A DNA stretch of 63,705 nt from Candidatus Shapirobacteria bacterium CG_4_10_14_0_8_um_filter_39_15 (GTDB lineage Bacteria > Patescibacteriota > Microgenomatia > UM-FILTER-39-15): the NCBI GenBank assembly GCA_002784465.1, contig PFLE01000008.1, positions 1-63,705 of the forward strand, in the 5' to 3' direction. The translations under genes and the position numbers were made by a program. This document shows, in pieces, positions 1,526 to 53,131 of this stretch. The stretch's first letter is position 1; every line of letters starts with the position of its first letter. The notes under the pieces are model-generated. The model was not told where the DNA came from, did no database searches, and saw only the letters and a list, made by a program, of their open reading frames with translations.

Positions 1526-2992
1526 ATGCAAAAAACAACATACAAAGTCCAGGGAATGCATTGTGGTTCATGCGAATTGCTGATTGAGGAAAAACTTATT
1601 GCTTTGCCGGGGGTAAAACAAGCAAAAGCCTCAACCCCTAAAGGAGAAGTGGAGTTGATTGGGGAAAGTAATCTACCTTCGGAAAAACAAGTGAATGATA
1701 TATTAAAAGAAATGGGTTATTCGTGTCAAATCGGGGGAAACCCCCCTGAACCTGAAAGCAATAATCAGGAAAAGATTACTTCCATTGCGATTGCGGGTTT
1801 GGTTTTTGCAATCTTTCTTCTGTTAAATCAATTAGGTTTTTCCAGTTTGGTAAATGTTTCTTCTTCTTCGGCCTTGCCAGCCTTCTTTCTTTTTGGTTTA
1901 CTGGCCGGTTTTTCAACCTGCGCTGCTTTAACAGGGGGAATTGTCCTTTCGATGTCTCAATCGTGGCAAGGCAAATCAATGACCCCTCATTTGCTTTTTA
2001 ATTTGGGGCGTTTGGGGGCTTATGGGGTTTTGGGGGCTTTATTAGGAATCGTTGGTAACCAGCTTCAAATGTCTCCGCTTTTTAATGCTTTACTGGTGAT
2101 TGGAGTCTCTGTTTTTATGATTTTAAATGGCTTAAAAATGTTTGGTGTGAAGGCTTTAAGCGGTTTCCAAATTGGTTTGCCAAAATCTTTAACCAAAAAT
2201 GCGATGAATCAGCGAATGCCCTTAATTATGGGGGCGCTGACGATTTTATTGCCTTGCGGATTTACGATTACTACGGAAAGCTTAGCATTAATTTCAAAAA
2301 ATCCGGTTCAGGGTGCATTAATTATGGCCTTATTTGCCTTAGGAACAGCGCCGGGATTATTAGCAATTGGCTATTCGTCAGTCAAAATGGGTAATTCTTC
2401 AAACGCAGTTGTATTTTCAAAAGTTGCTGGGGCTTTGGTATTGATGTTTGCACTATTCAACATCAATAATCAATTAAATGTATTAGGAGTTACTGTTCCT
2501 GCAGGAATTAATATTAATACAGGGGCTAATGGGCAAGTGCAGTCCGCCGCCGCGGTTGAGGGTTTGGCTCCGGTAGTAAACGGAAAACAATTATTAAAAA
2601 TGAATGCCAGCTCAACTGGATACACCCCGAATAAATTTGTAGTAAAGGCTGGAGTTCCTGTCCACTGGGAAATTACCGATACCGGAACCAGCGGCTGCAC
2701 GAATGCGATTATTTCCAACAGCCTATTTGAAGGGTCAATTCCTTTAACCAATGGTCAAGTGAGCGTTAAGGAGTTTACGCCGACAAAAGCAGGAAAATTC
2801 CGATTCAGCTGTTGGATGGGGATGGTCTCGGGGGTGATAGAAGTAGTTGATGTATCGGGGAATTCGGGGTCTTCTGGAAAATCAGGAACTTCGGCTAATA
2901 ATGTTGCTGCCGCGGCGGCGGAAATTCCTTCGGGGGCAAAAGGCTGCGGATGTGGAGGAGGCGGTGGGTCAAGCTGTGGAGGAAGTAGATAA
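1526..2992 (+). CDS. HMA domain / DsbD_2 (TauE-SafE-like) membrane domain / cupredoxin-like domain protein with a Cys-Gly tail
   Basis: N-terminal [12 protein letters not shown] metal-binding motif, multi-TM core with GFSTCA and LPCG, C-terminal cupredoxin-like segment, and a tail [14 protein letters not shown]. Confidence 0.7.
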
Positions 2993-5375
2993 TGGAAAAT
3001 ATAAAATTAAATATTACCGGTATGCATTGTGCTTCATGCGCGCTGCTCATAGAAAGATCCTTAAAAAAAGTAGAAGGGGTAAAAGAAGCGAGTGTTAATT
3101 ATGCGGCTGAAAAAGCCCTTGTCAATGCTAGAGAGGGGGTTTTGGCAGAAGCCCTTATTCAAGCAGTCAAAAATGCCGGTTATTCCGCGACTGTTTTTGA
3201 TGAAAAAAATACCCAATTTGAAAGCCAAAAGCGGCAAGAAGAAATAAACGCCCTTTGGAATAAGTTTAGGATAAGCCTCATTTTTAGTTCTCCGATGATT
3301 TATTTTATGCTTTTTGATTTTTTCCCTGGTTTAATCGGCGCGAAATCGTTATTACCGTTCGTAGGAATAGTCTCCTTAATTCTTGCCACCCCGGTACAGT
3401 TTATTATTGGAAAAGATTTTTATAAAGGAATGTGGTCGGCTTTGCGGATGAGAACTTTTAATATGGATTCATTAATTGCGATCGGTACATCCGTGGCTTA
3501 TTTTTACAGCATTATAAATTATGGAGCATATTATATCGCAAACAAGACTTTAATCGGTTTAATGGGGCAAAAAATTCCCGAGCTCTATTTTGAAACCGCC
3601 GCCTTTTTAATTACGTTCGTGGTTCTGGGAAAATTCCTTGAGGCGAAAGCAAAAGGAAGGACTTCGGAAGCAATAAAAAAACTGATGGGGCTTCAGGCGA
3701 AAACCGCAAGGGTAATTGGGGGTGATAAGGGAAATAAGGGAGATATTCCAATCGATCAGGTTGAGAAGGGAGATATTATTTTGGTAAGACCGGGAGAAAA
3801 AGTTCCGGTTGATGGAATAATAAAGAAGGGTTCCTCGGCGGTTGATGAGTCAATGATTACCGGAGAAAGTATGCCGGTGGAAAAAACCGTTGACAGCCGG
3901 GTTATCGGGGGAACGATAAATAAAAATGGCAGTTTTGAATTTATGGCCGATCGGGTTGGTGGAGAAACGACTCTTGCCCAGATCATTCGCTTAGTCGAAG
4001 AAGCCCAAGGATCAAAAGCACCGATTCAGGGAGTGGCCGACAGAATATCTGCCTACTTTGTGCCTGCTGTTATTGGTATAGCCATTTTAACCTTTGGAAT
4101 TTGGTATTTTGCGCTTGGTGCTTCATTGTCTTTCGCCCTAATGGCTTTTACTTCGGTAATCGTCATCGCTTGTCCGTGTGCTTTAGGGTTAGCAACTCCT
4201 ACTGCAATTATGGTTGGAACCGGTAAGGGCGCGGAAAACGGGATTCTAATCAAAGGGGGGGAACCATTGAAATGGCCGGGAAAATTGACACGATTATTTT
4301 TGATAAAACGGGAACGTTAACTAATGGTAAACCAGTTGTTACAGATGTTATTCCCGTAGAAGATTCTTCGCCTTCGGCTCAGAATGACATTCTACAGTTT
4401 GCCGCCAGTTTGGAAAAACAATCGGAACATCCGCTGGCGGAGGCGATTTATAACTATGCCAAAGAAGAAGGAATCAAATTTGAGGAAGTTAAAGATTTCA
4501 AGGCGATTCCCGGAAAGGGCGTGTCAGGAAAGATGGGGAAAATCAGGGTTGATTTGGGAAACAGAGAAATGATGAAAGGGAATGGAATTACGATCGGGAA
4601 AGAAACAGAGTTAGAGATGGAAAAATTAGAAAATCAGGGGAAGACGGTAATGATGATTGCTGTCGATAAAAAACTGGCTGGTTTAATTGCGGTTGCCGAT
4701 ACAATTAAGGAAACAACGCGGGAAGCGATTGAAAGATTGGAAAGAAAGGGAATTGATCTGTACATGATAACCGGTGACAATCAGCGGACCGCGAAGGCAA
4801 TTGCCTCGCAAGTCGGAATAGAGGCGGATCATGTATTTGCAGAAGTACTTCCAGAGGGGAAATCAGAAATAATTAAAAATTTAAAATTAAAAATTAAAAA
4901 TTCCCATCGAAGATGGGTTGCCATGGTTGGTGATGGGATAAACGATGCTCCGGCATTGGCTCAAGCGGATTTGGGAATTGCCATGGGATCGGGAACGGAT
5001 GTGGCCCTGGAAACCGGCGGGATTGTGATTATGAAGAATGATTTAAGGGATGTTAATCACGCGATCCAGCTGGCGAAAGAAACCATGGGAAAGATTAAAC
5101 AGAATATGTTTTTTGCTCTTTTTTATAACGTGATGGGGATTCCGATTGCGGCGCGGGTTTTCTCCGGTGTTGGAATTATTTTACGGCCGGAGTTGGCAGG
5201 TTTGGCCATGGCCTTAAGCTCAATTTCTGTTGTCAGCAACTCCTTATTGCTGCGCAATTACCGACACGGTAAGGTTAACTATCTTTCGGCGGTTGCACCG
5301 GCAGCGATGATCCTTATTTTTTCTTTGTTGTTTTTCCAATTTGCCCGTTTAAGCTCGACAACGATACGAAAGTGA
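2992..5375 (+). pseudogene. copA: copper-translocating P-type ATPase CopA, split into ORFs 2992..4320 and 4272..5375 by a -1 frame change at a G7 run
   Basis: HMA motif [14 protein letters not shown] motif ([11 protein letters not shown]), DKTGTLT in the second ORF, and GDGINDAPAL. The frames join if the G7 run at 4255-4261 is read as G8. Confidence 0.85.
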
Positions 5376-18996: not shown

Positions 18997-19039
<43 letters not shown>

Positions 19040-19482
19040 TAAGCATGCAAGTGGAACGCCCGCGCAAATCTCGCAAGAGATTTGTTCGGGAGTCGCAGAC
19101 GGGTGAGTAATAGGTAGGAATCTACCTCGAAGCGGGGAATACCTATCCGAAAGGATAGCTAATACCCCATATGGTCCCGCACCATACGGTGCAGGAGCAA
19201 AGGATGTAACTGTCCGCTTTGAGATGAGCCTACTTCCTATCAGCTAGTTGGTGAGGTAATGGCTTACCAAGGCTTTGACGGGTAGGGGGCGTGAGAGCGC
19301 AATCCCCCACAAGGGCACTGAGACACGGGCCCTACTTCTACGGAAGGCAGCAACTGGGAATTTTGCACAATGGACGAAAGTCTGATGCAGCAACGCCGCG
19401 TGAAGGATGAAGGTTTTCGGATCGTAAACTTCTTTTGCCAAGGTTGAGAGACTTTGGCGAATAAGCACCCGCTAACTACGTG

Positions 19483-20337
19483 AGGTTTTGAAAGAAAAAC
19501 GTCGGCACGTAGGTTATCAATCTGGCTATATGCTGGAACACTTGGTTAATATTTGACTACTAAAGCAAACCTTGCTACAGTGAAAATGTCGAATAAACCC
19601 GAAAAAATGACCGCAGATCATATATGGGTATCAAGCTATCAGCAGGCAACCCCCCGTCTGACGGGGGAGAGTCCTCAGAGACTATACGCCAGAGTCCGAT
19701 GTTAATATCGGACAAGATATAGTCCAAGAAGAAAAATGGAATATCTCTTGAAACAAATTCTTATTGGTTCACTACTCGGGGATGGACATCTAACACCATT
19801 AAATAAGAAAGGTTTGTCTCAATTATACTTAAAGTATGATGATAAAACTCTTTCTTATCTGGAATGGTTACACAAGATGTTTATTCCGATTAAGACTAAT
19901 GAGATTAAAGAGAGATCAAAAGGTGGTTATCATCAACACTACTTTACTACATTGCCAAGTTTGGAACTGGGTTATTATCGGAAATTGTTTTATCCGTTGG
20001 GTAAGAAATCAGTACCGGAAAACATCTCCAAATTATTAACTCATCCTATTGCTTTGGCAATATGGTATATGGATGATGGAACGTTGGATTTCCGCAAGAA
20101 ATACCATCGTAATGCCTCTTTTGCAACATTTTGTTTTAGCTTCAAAGAATGTGAGTACCTGCAAAAAATGCTAGAGAGAAATTTCTCTATTCGGGTAGGT
20201 ATTCACAAAACCACAATGAGGGAAAAGCTATATTTTCGTTTATATGTCAGATCAGAAAGCATGGATTGTTTTCTGTGTTTGATTGGAAAATATATTCATC
20301 CCGTTTTTAAATATAAGGTTCTAATAGCTAAAACTCA
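19483..20337 (+). mobile_element. 16S intron 1 (group I-like core), inserted between GCTAACTACGTG and CCAGCAGC (about E. coli 517/518)
   Basis: Core TCAGAGACTATACG ... GATATAGTCC at 19676-19724. The boundaries lack the canonical terminal G. Confidence 0.7.
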
Positions 20338-20353
20338 CCAGCAGCTGCGGTAA
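19736..20353 (+). CDS. LAGLIDADG homing endonuclease (double motif)
   Basis: LLGDGHL and WYMDDGTL motifs. The ORF runs 16 nt into the downstream 16S exon. Confidence 0.85.
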   Translation: MEYLLKQILIGSLLGDGHLTPLNKKGLSQLYLKYDDKTLSYLEWLHKMFIPIKTNEIKERSKGGYHQHYFTTLPSLELGYYRKLFYPLGKKSVPENISKLLTHPIALAIWYMDDGTLDFRKKYHRNASFATFCFSFKECEYLQKMLERNFSIRVGIHKTTMREKLYFRLYVRSESMDCFLCLIGKYIHPVFKYKVLIAKTHQQLR

Positions 20354-20609
20354 TACGTAGGGTGCAAGCGTTATCCGGATTTATTGGGCGTAAAGCGTTT
20401 CGTAGGTGGTTTAATAAGTCATATCTTAAAGACCAAGGCTTAACCTTGGAAATGGGTCTGATACTGTTAGACTAGAATTTTGTTGGGGATGCTGGAATTC
20501 CCGGTGGAGCAGTGAAATGCGTTGATCTCGGGAGGAACACCAATGGCGTAGGCAGGCATCTGGGCAATGATTGACACTGATGAACGAAAGTTAGGGGAGC
20601 GAAAGGGAT

Positions 20610-21417
20610 TAATTTTAGTCCCCCTAGGTAGCAATATCTAGGAAAAAACTGGCTATATCGGTGAAACTCCTTGTTGTTTCGGGTATTATTTGGTATTATG
20701 GAAACAATGAGGACAATACCGAGGGAAGTCGGTTATTTTGAGGGTAGACGATAGAGGTTAGAAGTTGGAATTTGAAGCCTGCCTGCCGGCAGGCAGGTTA
20801 GAAAATAGAAGAAAAATTGATAAAATAAAAATGTGATAAAAACATTTCGTGATTTAGAGGTATACACGGAGTCTTACCAGTTAATGTTAATTGTACATGA
20901 AGGAGTTAAAAAATTCCCTGTGTATGAAAGGACAGATTTGGCTCCGCAAATGAGAAGATGTTCGAAATCACCTCCGGCAAATATCGCCGAAGGTTGGGCG
21001 AAGAGAAATTTTGAAAAAGAATTCAAAAAACATTTAGGGACGGCAATTGGTTCCTGCAACGAAATGGAAGTTCACATTGAAACAGCACGAGATTTAGGTT
21101 ACTGGGATAAAGAATTTTGTCAATCTCTTCTTAAAAGATACCAAAATGTAGGAGGTAAATTAAATAACCTCCGAGAAAATTGGAAAACATACTAACTTCA
21201 ACTTTCTACCATCATAATCTAATTTCTAGTTTCTATTGTCTATCTTCAATTTAATCTGACCCCGTAGAGACTGTACGCCGGTCCCGAGCTTAGCTCGGGA
21301 ATGATACAGTCCGAACTATACAGTAATGTATAGATCTCTAAAGAAATTTAGAGGCGCCCCGCACCGTATGGTGCAGGGTTAGTATCCCGATTTGTGTCGG
21401 GAGAAAGTAACAAAATG
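20610..21417 (+). mobile_element. 16S intron 2, group I, at GGGAT|TAGAGACC (about E. coli 788/789)
   Basis: The 5' exon ends in U and the intron ends in G. Core GTAGAGACTGTACG ... GATACAGTCC. Confidence 0.8.
20833..21195 (+). CDS. four-helix-bundle protein (23S rRNA intervening-sequence protein / Avd-like family)
   Basis: LEVY...SYQL ... QMRRCSKSPPANIAEGWAKR ... GSCNEMEVHIETARDLGY pattern. Confidence 0.8.
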   Translation: MIKTFRDLEVYTESYQLMLIVHEGVKKFPVYERTDLAPQMRRCSKSPPANIAEGWAKRNFEKEFKKHLGTAIGSCNEMEVHIETARDLGYWDKEFCQSLLKRYQNVGGKLNNLRENWKTY

Positions 21418-21504
21418 TAGAGACCCCTGTAGTCCTAACTGTAAACGATGCTCGCTAGATGGCCCCGTCTGACGGGGTTGTCGTAAGCTAACGCGTTAAG
21501 CGAG

Positions 21505-21537
<33 letters not shown>

Positions 21538-21680
21538 TAAAGGAATTGACGGGGAGGCGCACAACCAGGGGAGCGTGTGGTTTAATTCGAGACTAAACGA
21601 AGGACCTTACCTAGGTTTGACATGCTAGAAGTAGCTTCCGGAAACGGATAGTCACCCGTTAAGTCGGGGACTAGCACAGC

Positions 21681-21717
<37 letters not shown>

Positions 21718-21784
21718 CGGCTTTAGTGCCGGAACGAGCGCAACCCCTACTATCTGTTAAATATTCAGATAGGACAGCCCCGTC

Positions 21785-21914
21785 TCTTTTTCGCATCAGC
21801 TAACAGAATAAGATTTGAAATAAAGATTTATTTTGTTAGAAGATCGCGACGCTAGCCCGAATAGGGCTGGGCTATTCGCCCACGCGTCGCGGTATGAGAT
21901 TGGCGCGAAAAAGT
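21785..21914 (+). other. 130-nt expansion segment in the 16S (tip of the helix before GGAGGAAGG)
   Basis: Flanked by CCCCGTC / GACGGGG. Its ends are self-complementary (CTTTTTCGC / GCGAAAAAG). No intron core motifs. Confidence 0.7.
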
Positions 21915-22142
21915 GACGGGGAGGAAGGAGGGGACGACGTCAAGTCAGCACGGCGCTTATGTCTAGGGCAACACACACACTACAATGGATCGGACAACGA
22001 GTTGCGAGCGCGCAAGCGTAAGCTAATCTCTTAAACCGATCCTCAGTTGGGATTGCGGGCTGTAACTCGCCCGCATGAACCCGGACTTGGTAGTAATCGC
22101 GGGTCAGCAAACCGCGGTGAATACGTTCTCGCCTCTTGTACA

Positions 22143-23038
22143 AAATAAATGCGCTTGGCAGTTTAGAAAACTAAGTGGTGAAAATCCACTTTTATAGAGA
22201 AATCATACTTAGAAATTAGATTAAGGATATGATTTTTATATATCTGTCACAAATGTTGTGACAGCTATAGTTGCGGACAGTCTTGAGGGGTAACCCGAAG
22301 GATGAAGGGTCCTATATACAAAGAGCAGTCCTCTTTTCAAAAGGGCAATAACGATCTGATTATGTGTACAGCAGAGAAGTTATTTTAAAAACCCAGAGGA
22401 ATGTTTGAAAAAGTTTTTTAAATGACCCAAGGAGATCCTGTGTGCATCAGAACTATAATCGGCCACAGGAAGTCAGCTGAGTCCATAGTAAGTAAAACTT
22501 GACAGGTCTATAAATAGTATCTAAATTAGAGATAGACCCGAAGCTTTACCGAAGGGACGAACTATATGTTAAATCCTCATTATATTGTCGGATTTGTTGA
22601 TGGCGAAGGATGCTTTAGTGTGTCCATAAGCCGAAAACGATTTCGAATACCTGAGGTTAGACTCAAATTTGAAATTGAGCTTAAAGGGGATGACGAACCA
22701 ATTCTGAAAGAGATCTAAAAATTTCTAGGTTGCGGATCAATCTACCATTTGGAATATAAAAAATACAAATGGGGACCGCATGCGAAATTTATGGTTGGTT
22801 TACAGAAAGATCTTATTAATAAAATAATACCTTTCTTTAAAAAATATCCTCTTCAGGCAAAAAAGAGAAAACAATTTGAGTTTTTCTGTAAGGTCGAAAA
22901 CATGATTCTTAAAGGGGAACATAGAAATCTTGAAGGAATTGAGAAGATAAGATTAATGAGAGAAAAACAACATATAGACTCGCTGGATGCGCTAGACGCG
23001 CACGTCCAGTGGGGCGTGGAATAGTTCTTAACCATGAT
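22143..23038 (+). mobile_element. 16S intron 3, between TTGTACA and CACCGCCCGTC (about E. coli 1396/1397)
   Basis: Joining the flanks restores the universal TGTACACACCGCCCGTC. The intron class is uncertain (no terminal G). Confidence 0.65.
22566..23024 (+). pseudogene. LAGLIDADG homing endonuclease (single-motif type) with an in-frame TAA
   Basis: MLNPHYIVGFVDGEGCFSV...ILKEI, then a stop at 22716-22718, then KFLGCGSIYH... in the same frame. The ORF track shows only 22749..23024. Confidence 0.7.
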
Positions 23039-23127
23039 CACCGCCCGTCAAATGAGCAAAGTCGGGGGTGCCTGAAGCTCCTGCTTAGCAGGAATGAAGG
23101 TAAACTCGGCGATGAGCATTAAGTCGT

Positions 23128-23836
23128 AAACTTGTTGCGACCTGCAATCGTAAGAATGCAGGAAAATCTAACTGTATCGGTGAAGCCTAAATCCGCCAGC
23201 TGGCGGATACGGTAATACCGAGGGAAGCTTGTTTCGGTAAAACAGTTGAACAGTTAAACAGTAAGACAGTAATCAGTGTAACGGTAATATGTTAGACTTA
23301 GTTAATGGCAACTATTTGGAGTGTTAAGCAACTTAGGGTATATCAGCGGCCATTGAAACTTTTGCCGCAATTGTATGATCTTGCTTATTCACTTCCAGTG
23401 ATTCGCCAAAAATTAAGAAAACAGATCATTAATTGCGGGGAAGGAATAGCCCCGTTGATTGCGGAAGGATTTGCTAAAAGAAGAAATGAAGCGGAAGTAA
23501 AAAGATTCTTCGAAATGGCAATGGGAGAGAGTGATGAATTAGCTACTCACCTAGAGCAAGTCAAAATTCTGGCAAATCGGTTTAAGAGTGTTAGAGTTGA
23601 ATTGTGTCAAAAGTTAATTGAAGAATACACAATCGAATCAAAAGAACTCTATAACCTTATTAAAAATTGGAATAATCATCCAACAAAATGATTTACCGTT
23701 TTACTGACTACTGTTTTACTGCAATACTGTTTAACAGATTTACAGATTCATAGCCCCGTAGAGACTACACGTTGGCCCCAGCTCAGCTGGGTGAAGATAT
23801 AGTCCATGCCTCGATGAAAATCGAGGAACACCAATG
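23128..23836 (+). mobile_element. 16S intron 4, group I, at AAGTCGT|AACAAGG (about E. coli 1498/1499)
   Basis: The 5' exon ends in U and the intron ends in G. Core GTAGAGACTACACG ... GATATAGTCC. Confidence 0.8.
23305..23691 (+). CDS. four-helix-bundle protein (IVS-protein / Avd-like family)
   Basis: LRVYQRPLKL ... INCGEGIAPLIAEGFAKR ... GESDELATHLEQ pattern, inside 16S intron 4. Confidence 0.8.
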   Translation: MATIWSVKQLRVYQRPLKLLPQLYDLAYSLPVIRQKLRKQIINCGEGIAPLIAEGFAKRRNEAEVKRFFEMAMGESDELATHLEQVKILANRFKSVRVELCQKLIEEYTIESKELYNLIKNWNNHPTK

Positions 23837-24007
23837 AACAAGGTATCCGTTCTGGAAGGAGCGGATGGATCACCTCCTTTCTAAGGAGATGTTTCACGAA
23901 CCTGTACTATTATGGTATAGGGAAAGGTATACACCCAAGCTTTTTTGGTTTGCTTGTAAAAGTTAACCATCACCTTCCCTTCACATTTTGGATATCAAAC
24001 AAAAAAA

Positions 24008-24033
24008 ATCCTGGTATTTGCCAGGATTTTTTG
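24008..24033 (+). terminator. terminator-like hairpin between the 16S and the tRNA cluster
   Basis: A-run, ATCCTGG / CCAGGAT stem, T-run. Confidence 0.35.
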
Positions 24034-24202
24034 GTTGTGATAAAATTCTACGCAAGGGCTGCTGGTTCCCTAAAAACACTTCGGTGTTTTGAGGGTAAAC
24101 ATCGGCTTGCACTAAAAATTTGTTTCGACAAATTTTCAGTGCAGAACGCTTTCCTGATGACGGTTGAATTTATTAACCGATATATAAGTTGCGAATAAAA
24201 AG

Positions 24203-24411
24203 GGGTCGCTAGCTCAGTTGGTTAGAGCGCATTCCTGATAGCTAGCGCTTTGCGCTAGATATATCAGATGTAATTTATGGGCTACTAGTTCATCGGTAGA
24301 ACGCTTACCTGATAAGTAAGAAGTACATGGTTCGATTCCATGGTAGCCCACAAATAAATTACATCTGTTATAAGAATGAGGTCTCAGGTTCGAATCCTGA
24401 GCGACCCACCA
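24203..24411 (+). tRNA. tRNA-Ile(GAU) (A), canonical sequence with encoded CCA but split after position 37 by a 132-nt insert (24241-24372)
   Basis: The exons GGGTCGCTAGCTCAGTTGGTTAGAGCGCATTCCTGATA and AGAATGAGGTCTCAGGTTCGAATCCTGAGCGACCCACCA fold into a perfect cloverleaf. Confidence 0.75.
24279..24350 (+). tRNA. tRNA-Ile(GAU) (B), uninterrupted, innermost
   Basis: 72 nt: GGGCTAC TA GTTC ATCGGTA GAAC G CTTAC CTGATAA GTAAG AAGTA CATGG TTCGATT CCATG GTAGCCC A. Confidence 0.85.
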
Positions 24412-24495
24412 TAGAAATTCGCAACTTCTATAAGAAAGAAGTACCAGGTCCGACTCCTGGGCAGCCCACCCTGGTTTGTTTGGTATTTTTACAAG

Positions 24496-24696
24496 ATGAA
24501 AAGAATTTATACTATCTTAATAGTTCTATTTATTTTATCCGGAATATTGTTACTTCTGTCCTTGCTTGGCGTCCCGCCGCTTTCGGGAAGAAACGGTTTG
24601 CTTCGGGTGTGCAGGTTTAATGAGCAAACAGCCAAAAATGATGTTTGCCGTTGGGTTTGGGACAAAACTTTGAATCAGCCCTCAATTTATTTTTAA
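24496..24696 (+). CDS. small membrane/secreted hypothetical protein
   Basis: 66 aa with hydrophobic N-terminus ILIVLFILSGILLLLSLLG. Confidence 0.4.
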   Translation: MKRIYTILIVLFILSGILLLLSLLGVPPLSGRNGLLRVCRFNEQTAKNDVCRWVWDKTLNQPSIYF

Positions 24697-24846
24697 TAAA
24701 GCTAAATGCAAAACCTAATTCTTCCCGGATTTTCCGAAAAAAATAAAGACTGAGCGGAGGAGACAAAAAGACAACTTGATAAATTTTCTGAATCAAAAGT
24801 AATTTATTGATATGCAAAGGACTCTCCTTGATATGTCGATATACAG

Positions 24847-25176
24847 ATGAAACACAAATTGTTTTTTACCAAACCTCCTGAACTAATTACTCTTGAACCA
24901 AGAATTAAAAAGCTTTTGGAAAAATATCATTTGGATCAATATTATTCGGTTGAGGATTTGGAGTTAATGATTTATGAATGTTTACCAGAGAACGAATTTA
25001 ATGTTTTTGATCCGGTAATTGAGCATCTTGTTTTGGCAGAGGATAAGGCAGACTTTCTGATTTTTCTGAACAATGAACTTTGGAATGCGACTCCTTTAAA
25101 AATGTTAGGCGGTATATCACCAATACAAAGCATGAATTCTGATCGGTTAAAAGAAAAAAGGGAAGTGATGGATTAG
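24847..25176 (+). CDS. hypothetical protein
   Basis: 109-aa ORF. The C-terminal WNATPLKMLGGISP is reminiscent of DUF2384-type antitoxin C-termini, but this is weak. Confidence 0.5.
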   Translation: MKHKLFFTKPPELITLEPRIKKLLEKYHLDQYYSVEDLELMIYECLPENEFNVFDPVIEHLVLAEDKADFLIFLNNELWNATPLKMLGGISPIQSMNSDRLKEKREVMD

Positions 25177-25186
25177 GGTTAGATGA

Positions 25187-25214
25187 TTGACAAAAACTAT
25201 TATTTTGGTATAAT
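25187..25214 (+). promoter_or_regulatory. near-consensus sigma70 promoter
   Basis: TTGACA, 16-nt spacer, TATAAT. It is followed by the hairpin CCTGCAA...TTGCAGG plus a T-run at 25231-25264. Confidence 0.5.
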
Positions 25215-25280
25215 TTAGTTACTTAAATCTCCTGCAACACCGCAAGGTCTTTGCAGGATTTTTTATGCTATAATTTAATT

Positions 25281-25811
25281 GTGAAGCGTTGCCTTATTCT
25301 AATTGACGGAAGTAATTTTTATTTCAAATTAAAAGATCTTCAACTCCAAAATCTTCTTGAGTTTGATTTTTCTGGATTTACAAAGTTTTTAGTTAGTAAA
25401 AATAAACTTATCAAAGCTACTTATTATGTTGGGGCAATGCGAACCGATGGAACTGAAAGAGCCCAAAGATTGTTTAACGATCAGCGCAAGCTTTTATCCC
25501 ATTTAACAAAACAGGGTTTAAAATATTCTCTTGGATATTTATTAAAATCAAAAAATAAATTTCACGAAAAAGGGGTTGATGTTAATATAGCGGTAGATAT
25601 TCTTGTGGCCGTTTATGAAAACCAATGCGATCATCTTATTTTAGTTTCGTCGGATACTGATCTTTTACCGGAAATCAAAAAAGCTAAAGAAAAAGGCAAA
25701 ACGATTGAATATATTGGTTTTTCCCATCAACCAAGTTTAGCCATGGTTGCTAATTGTACGGAATCAAAATTACTTAAAAAAGAAGAAATTACCCCATTTG
25801 TTAAAAAATAA
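25281..25811 (+). CDS. NYN-domain (LabA/DUF88-like) predicted RNase
   Basis: LILIDGSNFY ... GVDVNIAVDIL ... LVSSDTDLLP. The GTG start at 25281 is preferred over the TTG at 25251. Confidence 0.75.
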   Translation: MKRCLILIDGSNFYFKLKDLQLQNLLEFDFSGFTKFLVSKNKLIKATYYVGAMRTDGTERAQRLFNDQRKLLSHLTKQGLKYSLGYLLKSKNKFHEKGVDVNIAVDILVAVYENQCDHLILVSSDTDLLPEIKKAKEKGKTIEYIGFSHQPSLAMVANCTESKLLKKEEITPFVKK

Positions 25812-25964
25812 CCCTAAAATCGTAACTATTTTCTGCCGACCGGTACAAAAGATTAACGTACTGGAGCAGAAAAAAAATAGGGAAATACCAAGGGTGTCAA
25901 TAGCAATTCACCTCTAAGGGGTACTTAAACAGAATATTATTTTGATTTAGTTTATAATTAATTT

Positions 25965-26528
25965 ATGGAAAACGAAGCTCCTGATAAATCGATTGAACAA
26001 GCTGAAAGAAGAAAAATAGGTTTATATAATAATGGTTATTCTATCGCTGCCCATGAAATCGGTCATGCATTAGTTGTTGACTCAATTTTTAAAGAACGAA
26101 GACATTATGAATTTAAGGTTGAGGTTATACCGGTAGTTAATTGGCGTAATCCAAAAGACCAAATGGGTTTTTATGGTGGAAACTCAAGAATAAGATTAAT
26201 AACCTTGTCGGATCAACTTCCAGTTAACGAAGAACAAGAAAAATTATTTGCGTCCTCAGGTGTTGCCGTCTGTAGGGTTATCGGAAGAAACGAAAATTTC
26301 CAACCACAAGCGCCTGGTAATGATGAAAAAGTTTTTACCCATAAAGGAAAATTTGATTCAGAAGAAGCAGAAAGATACGTAGCCTTGGCAACAAAAATAT
26401 TAGAACCAAATAAGGAGATAATTGACACTGCTGCTAAAAAGATTGCCAAGCAAATTTCCGAAACAACAAAACCTTTTATTCTTGACGAACAGAGGTTAAG
26501 AGAATTCTTAAGGCCAGAAATGGGATAA
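25965..26528 (+). CDS. hypothetical protein with an HExxH zinc-peptidase-like motif
   Basis: AAHEIGHALV motif, 187 aa. Confidence 0.5.
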   Translation: MENEAPDKSIEQAERRKIGLYNNGYSIAAHEIGHALVVDSIFKERRHYEFKVEVIPVVNWRNPKDQMGFYGGNSRIRLITLSDQLPVNEEQEKLFASSGVAVCRVIGRNENFQPQAPGNDEKVFTHKGKFDSEEAERYVALATKILEPNKEIIDTAAKKIAKQISETTKPFILDEQRLREFLRPEMG

Positions 26529-26547
26529 CTTCTCGATAAACCAACCC

Positions 26548-26577
26548 TTGACTTCCCCTAATCTCTTTTGTTATAAT
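26548..26577 (+). promoter_or_regulatory. candidate promoter upstream of tRNA-Ala/23S
   Basis: TTGACT, 18-nt spacer, TATAAT. Confidence 0.4.
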
Positions 26578-26743
26578 GCGGTTCACTGGGGAGCCAGAAA
26601 TTAGTAATGAAAATTCTTAAACAAATAATCCAAAACCTTAGGCGATTTTTGCGTGCGTAAATAGGAATTTTCAGTATCTTTTGAAGCTCCATTGGGAGCT
26701 CTATTTGTTTTTGCACATTATTTAATGGAACTCAAGGACAGAC

Positions 26744-26955
26744 GGGCCAATGGCTCAGTTGGCTCGCACTGAAAAATTGCGAACAATTTTTTAGTGTAAA
26801 TGCCTCGTTTGTTTAGCCCGTAAGGGCTGTTAGCTTAGCTGGTAGAGCGTCGCGTTTGCAACGCGAAGGTCGCCAGTTCGAATCTGGCACAGTCCACCAG
26901 TGAGGCCCTTTACGGGCCATCGAGGAGGTTAGGAGTTCGAGTCTCCTTGGGTCCA
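26744..26955 (+). pseudogene. outer tRNA-Ala-like shell, interrupted in the D region and anticodon loop
   Basis: Cloverleaf parts:
- acceptor GGGCCAA / TGGGTCC with G3:U70
- TGGCTCAGTTGG D-arm start
- anticodon stem CCTCG / CGAGG with loop TTTG...CAT (TGC if joined)
- intact T arm AGGAG TTCGAGT CTCCT. Confidence 0.55.
26824..26899 (+). tRNA. tRNA-Ala(UGC), uninterrupted, CCA encoded
   Basis: GGGCTGT...ACAGTCC acceptor with G3:U70, anticodon loop TTTGCAA, T loop TTCGAAT. Confidence 0.9.
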
Positions 26956-26964
26956 CTGGGGCTA

Positions 26965-27067
26965 GTCATTCTGAACGAAGTGAAGAATCTAGCGGGATGT
27001 ACCAGACGGTACGTCCCGAAGCGAATTGCGCTGCGGCTAGATCCTTCGGCCGATGCCTCAGGATGAC
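26965..27067. repeat. GTCATTC...GAATGAC composite palindromic element (family P3)
   Basis: GTCATTCTGAACGAAGTGAAGAATCTAGC ... GGGATGTACCAGACGGTACGTCCC ... GCTAGATCCTTCGGCCGATGCCTCAGGATGAC. Confidence 0.75.
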
Positions 27068-27684
27068 GATTAATTTTTGCGGTTGACGATTATTTTTTAA
27101 AATAGAAATTAATCGTCAGCTGAAAAAAGCTGGATGGTACCTTAAAAAGTGAAGAGAAAATATATAAGTAGGCCCTCCGATGCAAATCGGAGGAAAAGGT
27201 CTTAAACAGCTTAGTTTTTATTAAAGCAAGTGGTGGATGCCTTGGTAACAAGAGCCGAAGAAGGACGCAGTCGGCAGCGATATTCGTCGGGGAGGAGTCT
27301 AACATCCTTTGATCCGGCGGTTTCCGAATAGAGTAATCTCCTCGTAAGAGGGACTTGCACCATACGGTGCGAGTAGGGAACTGGGCGAACCGAAACATCC
27401 AAGTAGCCCAAGGAAAAGAAAATAATAATGATTCCGTCAGTAGCGGAGAGCGAAAGCGGAACAGCCTAAACCCGAACAAATCTCGCAAGAGATTTGCGCG
27501 GGTGTTGTAGGGTCTCATTATGGGAGTATTAAGAATAGTCAAACGGTGTGGAATTGCCGACCATAGAGAGTGAAAGTCTCGTAGACGAAATTCAAGATAC
27601 CTCTAGAGATACCTAAGTAACTCGAAGCACATACTTTGAGCGAATCTGGGGCAACCATGCTCCAAGGCTAAATACTCTTGTTGT

Positions 27685-30844: not shown

Positions 30845-31650
30845 CAATTTTAGGGTCGCTACCCGAGTAATCGAGTAGATTAATACGAGCTCATAACGGT
30901 GGACTCCAATTGCGATATAATTATCGTAAATGGACAATACCGTGGGAAGTCGACAAAGAGATATTATTTTTGGAATGCTATTAGGTGACGGATTTTTAGA
31001 ACGCAATGGAAAATATGTCAGATTGGTAACTGACCATAGCGGAAAACAAGAAACTTATGTTAATTGGTTAGCAAGCCAATTAACTAACTTAAATCCGAAA
31101 TTAGTTTTTAAGAAAAGAATTGATCGAAGAAACCTGAAAGTTTACGATCATTGTATTTTAAGAACCAACACTTCATCTAAGTTGGAAAAATTCTTTTCCT
31201 TATTTTATGAAGGTAAAAGAAAAAGAATTCCACCTTGTTTAAGTAAAATAATATCTCCAATGGTGTTAGCGGTTTGGATAATGGATGATGGATACAAAAG
31301 AAATGATTGTCGGGCAATGAGAATAAATACCCAAAGTTATACCTTGGAAGAACAGAAAATTATCAGACAATCGTTTCTTCGTATCGGTATCAAAGTTAAT
31401 ATCCATAAACAAAAACAGCACTATTTGGTTTATATTCCATCTTCTTATATGAAGAAATTTATAGGAATGATTAAACCCTATATTATTCCTTCTATGGAAT
31501 ATAAAATTTGTTTGACCCCGTAACGACTGATTCCGAAAGGATGAGATATGAGATTTATCTTGTATCACACGCTCGTCCCCGCGCAAATTTCTGAAGAAAT
31601 TTGTTCGGGTGAAGGTATAGTCTGCACCATTAGTAATAATGGATTATGTG
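30845..31650 (+). mobile_element. 23S intron 3, group I with a LAGLIDADG ORF, at GTCGGCT|CATC (about E. coli 2511)
   Basis: The 5' exon ends in U and the intron ends in G. It has the same core word set as introns 2 and 4. Confidence 0.8.
30930..31523 (+). CDS. LAGLIDADG homing endonuclease (double motif)
   Basis: MLLGDGFLE and WIMDDGYK motifs. Confidence 0.85.
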   Translation: MDNTVGSRQRDIIFGMLLGDGFLERNGKYVRLVTDHSGKQETYVNWLASQLTNLNPKLVFKKRIDRRNLKVYDHCILRTNTSSKLEKFFSLFYEGKRKRIPPCLSKIISPMVLAVWIMDDGYKRNDCRAMRINTQSYTLEEQKIIRQSFLRIGIKVNIHKQKQHYLVYIPSSYMKKFIGMIKPYIIPSMEYKICLTP

Positions 31651-51218: not shown

Positions 51219-51932
51219 ATGGTAGAGATAGAAGAAACAAAAGAAATTGATTTGAAACTCAATAGCAAAGATCCAGAGAAAGACGAGAAAGTAAATCTTT
51301 GGGGCGGGCTTGATGCCGCCTCAATTTTAGAAAAACATAAAATTCCTTTGGTAATAGGCCTATCGGGTTTAGTCTTAATCCTGGGCGGGATTTTTTTAAT
51401 ACTTAAATCCAATCAATCTGAAGATAAAATTGAAATTATTCCGGCCGGTTCGGAAACTACAACCAGTCAAAAAATTAAAGCGGATATCGAAGGGGCAGTG
51501 ATTAAGCCGGGCGTGTATGAACTTGATTCTAGCAGCAGGGTTAACGATCTGCTAATTATGGCTGGTGGGCTTTCGGCGCAGGCTGATCGGGACTGGGTGC
51601 AGATGACTTTGAATCTGGCCCAGAAAGTGACGGACGGAACCAAGATTTTTATTCCGGATAAAAAAGAAGTGGGAAGCACTTCGACTTCGCTCAGTGTAAA
51701 TGGGAAGGTGGAAGCTGGAAATGGGACGGTAAACGGACAGCAAACAACCACGTTGATAAACATTAACACCGCTTCGGCCACCGAACTGGATACGCTTTGG
51801 GGAGTAGGACCGGCAACCGCCCAAAAGATTATTGATAACCGGCCGTATCAATCAATTGATGATTTGGTTAATAAAAAAGTGGTGAACAAGAGCGTGTTTG
51901 AGAGAATTAAGGGCTTGATAACTGTTTATTAA
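51219..51932 (+). CDS. comEA: ComEA-family DNA-binding competence protein
   Basis: TM anchor, SLBB-like middle, C-terminal helix-hairpin-helix INTASATELDTLWGVGPATAQKII. Confidence 0.85.
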   Translation: MVEIEETKEIDLKLNSKDPEKDEKVNLWGGLDAASILEKHKIPLVIGLSGLVLILGGIFLILKSNQSEDKIEIIPAGSETTTSQKIKADIEGAVIKPGVYELDSSSRVNDLLIMAGGLSAQADRDWVQMTLNLAQKVTDGTKIFIPDKKEVGSTSTSLSVNGKVEAGNGTVNGQQTTTLININTASATELDTLWGVGPATAQKIIDNRPYQSIDDLVNKKVVNKSVFERIKGLITVY

Positions 51933-51994
51933 AACTAAAGTCATTCGGAGGCGTAGCCGAAGAATCTAGTGAAAGATCCTTCGTTTCACTCAGG

Positions 51995-53131
51995 ATGACA
52001 CCCCAAAGAATGAGACACTTTGTCATCTTATTACTCCTATTGATATTGTTTTTCTGGCGGTTTTCAACGATTAAAACTCCAAATTACTCTAACGGAACAC
52101 AAATAAGAATTACTGCCACTTTGAAAACAGCACCTCAAGTTTCCGGAGGGACCCAAAAATTTTCTCTGTCTGGCATCAAAATCACTACCTGGAAATATCC
52201 GGAATATCAATATGGAGACCGGTTGATTGTTTCAGGAGTTGTGAAGAATAATAGTTTAGAGATGCCTGGAATAGAGAAGCGGGAGGCGGGAAGCCCTTAC
52301 AGGGTAAACGAGATGCGAGATGCGGGAAACGGGATATCAGATATTGGATATTTGATATTCGAGTTAAGAAATCAGATAGATAAAAAATTTCGGAAAAATT
52401 TACCGGAACCGGAGGCTAGTTTATTGTCCGGAATTACTCTGGGATTAAAATCAAATCTGCCAAAAGATTTTTATTACAACCTGCAAAAAACCGGAACCAT
52501 GCATATTATCGTTGCCTCGGGGATGAATGTGGCGTTGGTTTCCGGAACAATCACGACTTTTTTATTGTGGTTTTTTTCCAGGAAAAAAGCGGTAATACTT
52601 TCAATTATTTTGATCTGGTTTTATGTAGAGTTAGCGGGTGGCGATGTTCCCGTGGTTCGGGCGGGGATAATGGGGTCGGTTGTCCTTCTGGCCCAATTTT
52701 TCGGCCGGGAACCGGATGTTCTTAATGCCCTGGGGGTTGCTGTGGCGATAATTGTTTTTATCAACCCTGCCAGCTTAAATGATATAGGCTTTCAATTGTC
52801 GTTTGCTGCGACCTTAGGTATCGTAATGCTTTCAAAAAAGTTGAGCAGTTTGCTCTCAAGACTGCCAGAAAGAGTTAGAAACGATCTTGGACAAACTTTA
52901 TCAGCCCAACTTTTTACTTTACCGATCATGCTTTTAAACTTTGGTTATTATTCCTGGATTTCCGTTCCGGTTAATTTGCTGGTTGCCTGGCCATTGGTTT
53001 GGATATTAAGATTGGGATTAGTAGCGGGATTTGTCGGAATATTGTTTGCGCCCTTGGGTTATCTGATTTGCCTTTTTATATTGCCGTTGTTAAGCTATTT
53101 TGTTAGAGTGGTGGAGTTATTTGGAAAATAA
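51995..53131 (+). CDS. comEC: ComEC/Rec2 membrane channel part (DUF4131 plus Competence domain)
   Basis: Typical ComEC TM core. The start codon lies inside a P3 repeat (CAGGATGAC). In-frame word insertion at 52274-52334. Confidence 0.8.
   Translation: MTPQRMRHFVILLLLLILFFWRFSTIKTPNYSNGTQIRITATLKTAPQVSGGTQKFSLSGIKITTWKYPEYQYGDRLIVSGVVKNNSLEMPGIEKREAGSPYRVNEMRDAGNGISDIGYLIFELRNQIDKKFRKNLPEPEASLLSGITLGLKSNLPKDFYYNLQKTGTMHIIVASGMNVALVSGTITTFLLWFFSRKKAVILSIILIWFYVELAGGDVPVVRAGIMGSVVLLAQFFGREPDVLNALGVAVAIIVFINPASLNDIGFQLSFAATLGIVMLSKKLSSLLSRLPERVRNDLGQTLSAQLFTLPIMLLNFGYYSWISVPVNLLVAWPLVWILRLGLVAGFVGILFAPLGYLICLFILPLLSYFVRVVELFGK

Follow-up and report, generated by a model that had tools for sequence, protein, structure and literature searches.

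Concentrically nested tRNA genes in the 16S-23S spacer of a Candidatus Shapirobacteria genome and in other Candidate Phyla Radiation bacteria

A box C/D RNA is found inside the intron of an archaeal transfer RNA (tRNA), tRNA-Trp, and tRNA bodies have reportedly been engineered by Ponchon and Dardel as scaffolds for recombinant RNA expression. Williams is said to have treated, in 2002, the integration of elements into tRNA genes. In archaea and eukaryotes, a splicing endonuclease removes tRNA introns at a bulge-helix-bulge motif, tRNAs with several introns exist, and introns have moved by transposition among the tRNAs of Thermoproteales (PMC4090602, PMC10714607). Split and tri-split tRNAs are known from Nanoarchaeum and Caldivirga (PMC10714607), and genomic islands and prophages integrate into tRNA genes, carrying a replacement for the part that they displace (PMC9897764). 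Here we analyse a 63,705-nucleotide contig of Candidatus Shapirobacteria bacterium CG_4_10_14_0_8_um_filter_39_15 (PFLE01000008.1, assembly GCA_002784465.1; the whole stretch is called the window), in which three tRNA-Ile genes occupy positions 24056-24468, each within the anticodon loop of the next. Full-text literature searches gave no description of nested tRNA genes, in agreement with the preliminary description of this DNA, whose author was aware of no precedent. The nearest item, judged by its title, is a 2025 preprint said to concern a new insertion site of group I introns in the tRNA genes of Patescibacteria.

Three tRNA-Ile genes in concentric order

The preliminary description had proposed three nested tRNA-Ile genes, and every element was located where it had been placed; the triple nest is confirmed as genuine. 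All its parts are on the + strand. The innermost gene, tRNA-Ile(GAU) B (24279-24350), is uninterrupted and has no encoded CCA. It was recognized by both ARAGORN and the Rfam tRNA model (66.1 bits), and it is a functional tRNA in this window. The middle gene, tRNA-Ile A, consists of a 5' exon that runs through position 37 (24203-24240) and a 3' exon with an encoded CCA (24373-24411), separated by an insert of 132 nt. The 5' arm of this insert (24241-24278) comprises a hairpin (24242-24258), the hexamer ATATAT (24259-24264) and one strand of an inverted-repeat clamp (24265-24278), a layout homologous to that of the insert in another locus, L359 (loci in other genomes and metagenomes are denoted by L and a number). 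The 3' arm (24351-24372) comprises the linker CAA, the second clamp strand (24354-24367) and the tail TTAT(A). The clamp around B, found by inverted-repeat search, is CAGATGTAATTTAT/ATAAATTACATCTG at 24265-24278/24354-24367. When the A exons were joined, ARAGORN called a tRNA-Ile(GAT) of 77 nt including CCA, and in intron mode, with B peeled out, it called 24203-24411 as A. None of 2000 exon shuffles was called as a tRNA, and among 9070 joins of the same geometry across the window a single one was called, the real one.

The outer gene, tRNA-Ile C, is interrupted by a 273-nt insert that is built in the same way. Its 5' part (24056-24158) has the acceptor strand GGGCTGC, the D-stem GTTC/GAAC, the anticodon stem strand CTTTC and the loop sequence CTGAT, and its stems are complementary to the 3' part (24432-24468), which carries the T-loop TCCGACT. 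The 5' arm of the insert (24159-24202) holds a hairpin (24161-24179), ATATAT (24180-24185), a clamp strand (24186-24196) and a linker; the 3' arm (24412-24431) holds a linker, the other clamp strand (24417-24427) and the tail CTAT. Here the inverted-repeat search gave the clamp AAGTTGCGAAT/ATTCGCAACTT (24186-24196/24417-24427). Just about 60 nt of either insert is not tRNA. The architecture that the preliminary description saw as shared by the two inserts (hairpin, ATATAT, clamp, YTAT tail) is a family feature, which recurs in L359, L300, L387 and L334. Its two-part definition of C was incomplete, as two further hairpins in the D-loop had been overlooked. The first insert (24069-24095), seen both in the sequence and in the minimum-free-energy fold, is a UUCG-capped hairpin followed by TAAAC. 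The second (24108-24143), found by inverted-repeat search, is a 16-bp UUCG hairpin immediately 3' of the D-loop GG (24104-24105), and a retained ATCGG separates the two. Calling tRNAs on joined exons, a check proposed in that description, thus succeeded for A and failed for C as originally defined: with the D-loop hairpins left in, no tRNA was called, because the 5' part of C carries about 70 extra nucleotides. After removal of all three inserts, C was called by ARAGORN as tRNA-Ile(GAT).

Once the D-loop is restored, C shares 90% identity along its whole length with the tRNA-Ile genes of L370, L306 and L413, which are uninterrupted. Its T-loop has C at position 55, where U is nearly universal elsewhere. 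We considered C55 as a sign of decay and ruled it out, since the uninterrupted genes of L370 and L306 share the T-loop TCCGACT, which looks native to this type of tRNA-Ile. C, with its three interruptions, is most likely a native gene that is now a shell. The minimum-free-energy fold of 24040-24480 is a concentric triple cloverleaf (-156 kcal/mol, z = -8.6), in which both clamps form and each insert is closed at its base by a UAUA/UAUA helix of 4 bp.

The 16S gene ends near 23882 and the 23S gene starts at 27210, which places the nest within a 3.3-kb 16S-23S spacer that also holds open reading frames (ORFs). Five ENA metagenomes that were assembled independently carry the 640-nt region of the nest at 100% identity. 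The nest is therefore not a one-off chimera, a possibility that the preliminary description had wished to see excluded.

Recurrence, isoacceptor matching and shell decay

The nest had been presented as a single oddity; the nested layout is in fact widespread in bacteria of the Candidate Phyla Radiation (CPR). In all, about 35 nested or relic loci were found in CPR genomes and metagenomes, of the isotypes Ile, Val, Cys and Ala, and multi-level nests occur among them. In a genome collection with one genome per species, we scanned for pairs of tRNA-Ile 5' halves at a distance of 45-75 nt and obtained 44 loci. True clamped nests numbered seven (L254, L275, L280, L285, L291, L293 and L296), from Parcubacteria, Saccharibacteria, Paceibacterota and other Patescibacteria, several of them beside a 16S gene; the others were tandem genes, partial copies of the att type, 5'-half arrays in Clostridia and CRISPR arrays. 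A metagenome scan used uninterrupted B-type tRNA-Ile genes as the query, so that it was blind to nesting. It returned 119 loci, 112 of them with enough upstream sequence, and an orphan 5' half lay just upstream in 15 of the 112. Five further metagenome nests were decayed or insert-laden (L413, L306, L352, L336 and L374). A search that looked for paired outer acceptor, anticodon and T-arms without regard to isotype gave Val-in-Val (L355, L371, L414) and Cys-in-Cys (L341, L323, L315) nests, and reading of L277 showed a Val 5' half directly upstream of an intact tRNA-Val. Two other search patterns were discarded: CTGATNB behind a canonical D-arm picked up ordinary tRNAs that have C38 or U38 (at least 120 matches), and two T-loops less than a tRNA length apart were swamped by phage and att repeats. 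Clostridia and Bacillota metagenome-assembled genomes (L267-L272, L278, L279, L283, L288) have, upstream of an intact gene, arrays in which 5' halves of tRNA-Ile are repeated and joined to 3' parts of unrelated sequence; their order is tandem and not nested, and this is therefore probably a different, integrase-type phenomenon.

Wherever the anticodon loop of the shell is readable, the inner and outer isoacceptors are the same (Ile; Val in L355 and L371; Cys in L341 and L315; Ala in the window). Shells without a readable anticodon loop were typed by the tRNA that they enclose (Val L414 and L277, Cys L323 and several Ile). The inner tRNA usually sits within an inverted-repeat clamp of 8-17 bp, whose sequence varies from locus to locus, and the split falls at position 34/35, 35/36 or 36-38, always within the anticodon loop.

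The Ala example was also overlooked in the preliminary description and lies 2.4 kb downstream of the Ile nest, in the same spacer and on the + strand. An intact tRNA-Ala(UGC) at 26824-26899 (ARAGORN and Rfam, 70.7 bits) is enclosed by the clamp GCCCGTAA/TTACGGGC (26816-26823 and 26910-26917; inverted-repeat search) and by a decayed tRNA-Ala shell. The 5' part of the shell (26744-26811) has a hairpin in its D-loop (26766-26796) and an anticodon loop that breaks off after TTTG; the 3' part (26918-26955) reads CAT, CGAGG, T-arm, TGGGTCC, A. The shell retains G3:U70, the anticodon stem CCTCG/CGAGG and the T-arm; it has lost the 3' strand of the D-stem and has one mismatch in the acceptor stem. A hairpin family beginning with GCACTRAAAAWTT occurs just twice in the 63.7 kb, at 24108-24143 in C and at 26766-26796 in the Ala shell, in both cases immediately after the D-loop GG of an outer shell. 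Shells in other genomes carry hairpins of their own in D- or T-loops: L414 has three copies of TCCGACAAAGGTCGGAG, and perfect palindromes sit in the T-loops of both L254 and L257.

The state of the shells was classified by ourselves from reading the sequences of about 35 shells. About 8 of the 35 are fully intact (window A, L293, L299, L339, L384, L393, L359 and Cys L341), about 7 keep their stems and have extra loop inserts or no normal anticodon loop (window C, L352, L336, Val L355/L371, Val L414 and L402), and about 20 have stem mismatches or lack a half. The enclosed tRNA is intact at all loci, both scans having selected for an intact anticodon arm. Downstream of one and the same small membrane-protein gene, the shell can be intact (L299, L339, L393) or truncated (L374, L405). 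L408, a close relative of L414, has no 3' shell in the 46 nt before the contig end. Between L300 and L387 the inner tRNA is identical and the 5' arm of the insert is 92% identical, with shells that have diverged and decayed. In L414, the outer 3' exon is a copy of the inner one and is mismatched to the 5' strand of its own shell, a pattern indicative of gene conversion with no selection acting on this shell. L414 also contains a partial duplicate of the 5' side of its nest with D-loop hairpins, and a Val shell without an anticodon loop; these features lie at about 327-470 and 955-1130.

Isoacceptor matching, the decay spectrum of the shells, multi-level nesting and the lack of a removal signal lead us to favour, at about even probability, a serial insertion of clamp-flanked tRNA cassettes into the gene of the same isoacceptor, in which the functional gene would be the innermost tRNA, with the shells around it as unspliced context of the precursor. 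From the anatomy, recurrence, isoacceptor matching and decay spectrum that were observed, together with the lack of known intron or ribozyme signatures, we thus infer an insertion origin, a processing route and non-splicing. C would be the native tRNA-Ile gene of the lineage; a 273-nt insert carrying A would have split it after U36, and a 132-nt insert carrying B would have split A after position 36/37. Alternatively, a unit of A around B may have entered C in one piece. Nesting could repeat itself because each insert recreates an intact target, and the isoacceptors would match because a cell would presumably survive a hit on a probably single-copy, essential tRNA gene only when a functional copy of that tRNA arrives with the insert. 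The preliminary description had suggested a cassette that carries a tRNA and targets its own isoacceptor gene. Such a cassette would fit the isoacceptor match, the decayed shells and the multi-level nests; no enzyme for it was found among the 39 ORFs of the window.

A promoter-like site, TTGCCA-17-TAAAAT with an upstream TG (24018-24046, + strand), matches 10 of 12 consensus positions and contains an extended -10, with a predicted start at about 24053, just 5' of C; the nest would thus have a transcription start of its own. Between the 3' end of the 16S gene and the nest lies a candidate bidirectional terminator hairpin (24003-24032), a consensus match of 12 pairs followed by a T-run on the - strand (consensus scan), the T-run on the + strand being noted by reading. 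Transcription from the promoter-like site would yield a precursor of about 415 nt with three concentric cloverleaves, in which the 11-bp and 14-bp clamps, each with its short UAUA helix, may hold the levels in register despite their near-identical halves. B alone has uninterrupted loops; it could be freed by ordinary end-processing enzymes and would then receive its CCA. A and C would stay unspliced and persist as folded precursor context, in slow decay.

Possible selection on the shells, and the search for signatures of known elements

Several observations weigh against this reading of serial insertion. All 21 stem pairs of C are Watson-Crick, tRNA A is flawless, and in silico excision of the insert restores a perfect 7-nt anticodon loop in every intact shell. 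Extra inserts in shells fall nearly always in D-, anticodon or T-loops, which suggests that the fold may matter. The orthologous loci L339 and L393 have flanks that are 71% identical (49% at four-fold degenerate sites), and their outer exons are identical at 65 of 72 positions, have no stem mismatch and retain features unlike the inner tRNA (GCTC/GAGC, A26 and GGGTC); either the shell is under purifying selection, then, or the nest was transferred recently as a whole. In five nests of the class that we call class 1, 96.5% of cells pair; 18 pairs differ on both sides, and one-sided changes are absent. Covariation in the outer helices of these nests equals that in the inner ones, and the clamps covary too. 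Neither an insertion enzyme (among the 39 window ORFs) nor a target-site duplication was found, and an empty site in a close relative was not found either, the flanks of the nest matching 0 of about 160 loci compared.

The borders of the inserts are a further point of this kind, being conserved far beyond neutral expectation. They fall into recurring classes. The window-type border, CTGAT(A)|G-hairpin-ATAT(AT)-clamp ... clamp-YTAT|AA, is present in both window inserts, L359, L300, L387 and L334, and its ATAT and YTAT motifs are common to the window and L359, itself in an rRNA spacer, at a 23S identity of just 75-79%. The class-1 border, CCTGA|CCTGCCCGCCGAACAAA-clamp ... clamp-NCGGCTTTGGCAGGCGGG|TAAG, is found in L299, L339/L348, L393, L384, L414 and L408, with looser versions in L327 and L331; its ends (CCTGCCCGCCGAACAAA on the 5' side, CGGCTTTGGCAGGCGGG on the 3' side) are invariant across the class-1 loci. 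A third, simpler class, CTGA|CCCTG ... CGGGG|TAA, occurs in L336, and its 5' part alone in L405. A search for the class-1 border in viral contigs gave 7 matches, all of them chance matches within coding sequence.

These findings bear on the possibility that the inserts are true introns of an undescribed bacterial kind: cleavage, by an endonuclease or by the RNA itself, would occur where the insert helix has its base, and a ligase would seal the exons. Two tRNA-Ile (B and A) would in that case come from a single transcript, or three if the D-loop hairpins of C are removed as well. Excision in silico yields canonical tRNAs from all eight of the fully intact shells listed above; the conservation of the L339/L393 outer exons against 49% at four-fold degenerate sites, the covariation of the outer helices, the invariant or recurrent borders, the pairing of the insert ends right at the junctions and the constant position of the split inside the anticodon loop all speak for introns. 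Apparent purifying selection on the outer tRNA of L339/L393 keeps a splicing or processing route, the alternative named in the preliminary description, in play. However, no group I core, bulge-helix-bulge motif or known ribozyme was found, and no splicing enzyme was seen among the window ORFs; a protein-dependent route of tRNA splicing is, to our knowledge, not on record for Bacteria. Decay affects more than half of the shells, and the shells of Val L414 and of L402 (2135-2295) have stems but no anticodon loop, the anticodon stem continuing straight into the clamp. Working splicing would not require a cargo of the same isoacceptor, yet the match holds wherever the loop is readable, and window C would need three separate excisions. 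We regard introns of this kind as the main rival explanation, tentative and less probable. The fuller claim, of a CPR tRNA splicing that is neither group I nor bulge-helix-bulge, with introns that carry a clamp-closed tRNA of the same isoacceptor and one precursor that yields two or three tRNAs, is a shade more doubtful.

The same shells without an anticodon loop are what would be expected if shells were kept as a non-decoding, tRNA-shaped scaffold, whose outer acceptor, T- and D-arms would, with the clamp, both present the inner pre-tRNA to processing and stabilise it in the manner of engineered tRNA scaffolds, selection acting on the fold and not on the anticodon. The stems of Val L414 and L402 are kept, apart from one acceptor mismatch in L402, and both shells encode a CCA; the inserts of window C, L352 and L336 lie mostly in loops and leave the stems perfect; the clamps covary and the L339/L393 shell appears to be under selection. 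That selection, the covariation and the conserved borders together keep a splicing or scaffold role in play. On the other hand, L374, L405, L408, L334 and about 80% of the un-nested loci manage without an intact shell, so that a scaffold would be dispensable, and the T-loop inserts of some shells should break the tRNA elbow. A scaffold role is in our estimation improbable.

The preliminary description had also reported that the inserts lack a group I core and a convincing bulge-helix-bulge, and both statements held. An Rfam scan of 22100-27300 at E<=10 gave no group I core and no known ribozyme in 24056-24468, its sole Intron_gpI match being at 23574-23826, inside the 16S gene, and in the class-1 nests L384 and L393 Rfam found neither a group I core nor a known ribozyme. 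The end rule of group I introns (U or C at -1 in a wobble pair, G as the last intron base) does not apply to the window inserts, which end in ..TTAT(A) and ..CTAT; class-1 inserts end in G but follow A35. The P1/P10 logic of group I introns was rejected. Folds and drawing by hand gave no bulge-helix-bulge motif with the junctions in 3-nt bulges: the 5' junction is single-stranded, in a stretch of 7 nt, and the 3' junction falls inside the 4-bp UAUA helix or at its end. Class-1 nests have a UUU bulge beside a short helix, but away from the junctions. A hammerhead ribozyme was considered and rejected: C, L300, L334 and L387 have CUGAUGA and a hairpin, but this is followed by AUAU, ACAU or GAU and not by GAAA, the triplet is out of register, and Rfam gave no match. 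Integron attC sites were likewise rejected. In rRNA-type intervening sequences, an extended helix in place of a hairpin loop is excised by RNase III without religation; the clamps of the nests are helices of 8-17 bp that emerge from a loop. Decoding would not be possible for a tRNA whose anticodon loop stayed nicked. CPR bacteria are reported to have kept RNase III (PMC12641178).

Among mobile elements, insertion after CTGA or CTGAT, a hairpin near the left end and no clear duplication would fit an element of the IS200/IS605 type or a miniature inverted-repeat element. No transposase for an IS200/IS605-type element was found among the window ORFs, and copies of the insert were met in tRNA genes only. 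More generally, Pfam scans of the 39 ORFs of the 63.7-kb window revealed no RtcB, EndA, integrase or transposase. An origin of the nest as debris of integrase-mediated integration at a tRNA gene, with att duplications, has a parallel in the att-type partial tRNA-Ile copies that lie beside tRNA-Ile genes elsewhere (L257, L259, L260, L263 and the Clostridia 5'-half arrays). The halves of the nest, however, are concentric and not tandem, around tiny inserts of 132 and 273 nt, an order and size that exclude an att-site duplication; the clamps are inverted repeats, and no integrase was found among the window ORFs. Such debris and an assembly chimera also fail to account for the same layout in unrelated datasets, and the chimera for the five identical assemblies. 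We consider this pair of explanations close to refuted.

The 16S gene (18999-23882) is broken into at least four pieces by inserts, which encode LAGLIDADG ORFs (19736-20353 and 22749-23024) and intervening-sequence-protein ORFs (20833-21195 and 23305-23691); the group I match inside it, at 23574-23826, is sub-threshold. The 23S region contains a LAGLIDADG ORF at 30930-31523. Between the Ile and Ala nests the spacer holds a nuclease-like gene of the NYN domain type (LabA/DUF88; 25251-25811), which is about 70% conserved in Microgenomates, with homologues labelled by their sources as Daviesbacteria, Gottesmanbacteria and Microgenomates. In the relatives L006-L009 the gene is located elsewhere, and no orthologous spacers were obtained from them; its position in the spacer may therefore be due to chance. 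At 51219-53131 the window has ComEA-like and ComEC-like competence genes, and DNA uptake would offer nested alleles a route between relatives. A heavy-metal P-type ATPase is divided between two overlapping ORFs, 2992-4320 (HMA and E1-E2 ATPase domains) and 4272-5375 (hydrolase domain), which suggests a frameshift or a split gene.

Nested tRNA genes among the known systems

If the shells are spliced, they would represent an undescribed bacterial tRNA splicing system whose introns deliver a second tRNA. If they are not, DNA would have a novel means of entering a gene that is both essential and single-copy: the insert brings a spare copy and recreates the target, so that nesting can repeat. Standard tRNA finders report the innermost gene only and miss the shells, which affects tRNA censuses of CPR bacteria as well as the annotation of their rRNA operons. 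The clamps, the hairpins in D- and T-loops and the conserved borders also provide concrete RNA substrates for the processing of stable RNA in reduced bacteria.

The nests resemble group I introns in that a bacterial tRNA gene is interrupted inside its anticodon loop, in a host rich in rRNA introns with homing endonucleases. They differ in having inserts without a detected catalytic core, omega-G or the U-1 rule, with a non-tRNA part of about 60 nt, and in a cargo that is a tRNA instead of a ribozyme or an endonuclease gene. With the tRNA introns of archaea and eukaryotes they share interruptions at or near 37/38, with more of them in D- and T-loops, the possibility of a functional RNA inside the intron, and families that recur among tRNAs. 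Unlike those introns, they occur in a bacterial host, have no bulge-helix-bulge at the junctions and carry a complete tRNA of the same isoacceptor, and many of the host genes are decayed. In split tRNAs, long complementary sequences beside the halves hold these together, as the clamps would after excision of B; the halves of a nest, by contrast, lie on one transcript around another tRNA, and no joining machinery is known.

The islands found in tRNA genes are similar in that the interrupting element brings a replacement and that the anticodon loop and T-loop are preferred. In the nests, however, the replacement is a whole gene and not a half, the order is concentric and not tandem, and the elements measure about 130-270 nt and have no integrase. 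Finally, engineered tRNA scaffolds and rRNA intervening sequences offer the likeness of a structured RNA set into the anticodon arm by way of a closing helix, in a tRNA body that continues to fold and to be processed as a tRNA; unlike the engineered scaffolds, the nest is natural, and its guest is itself a tRNA.

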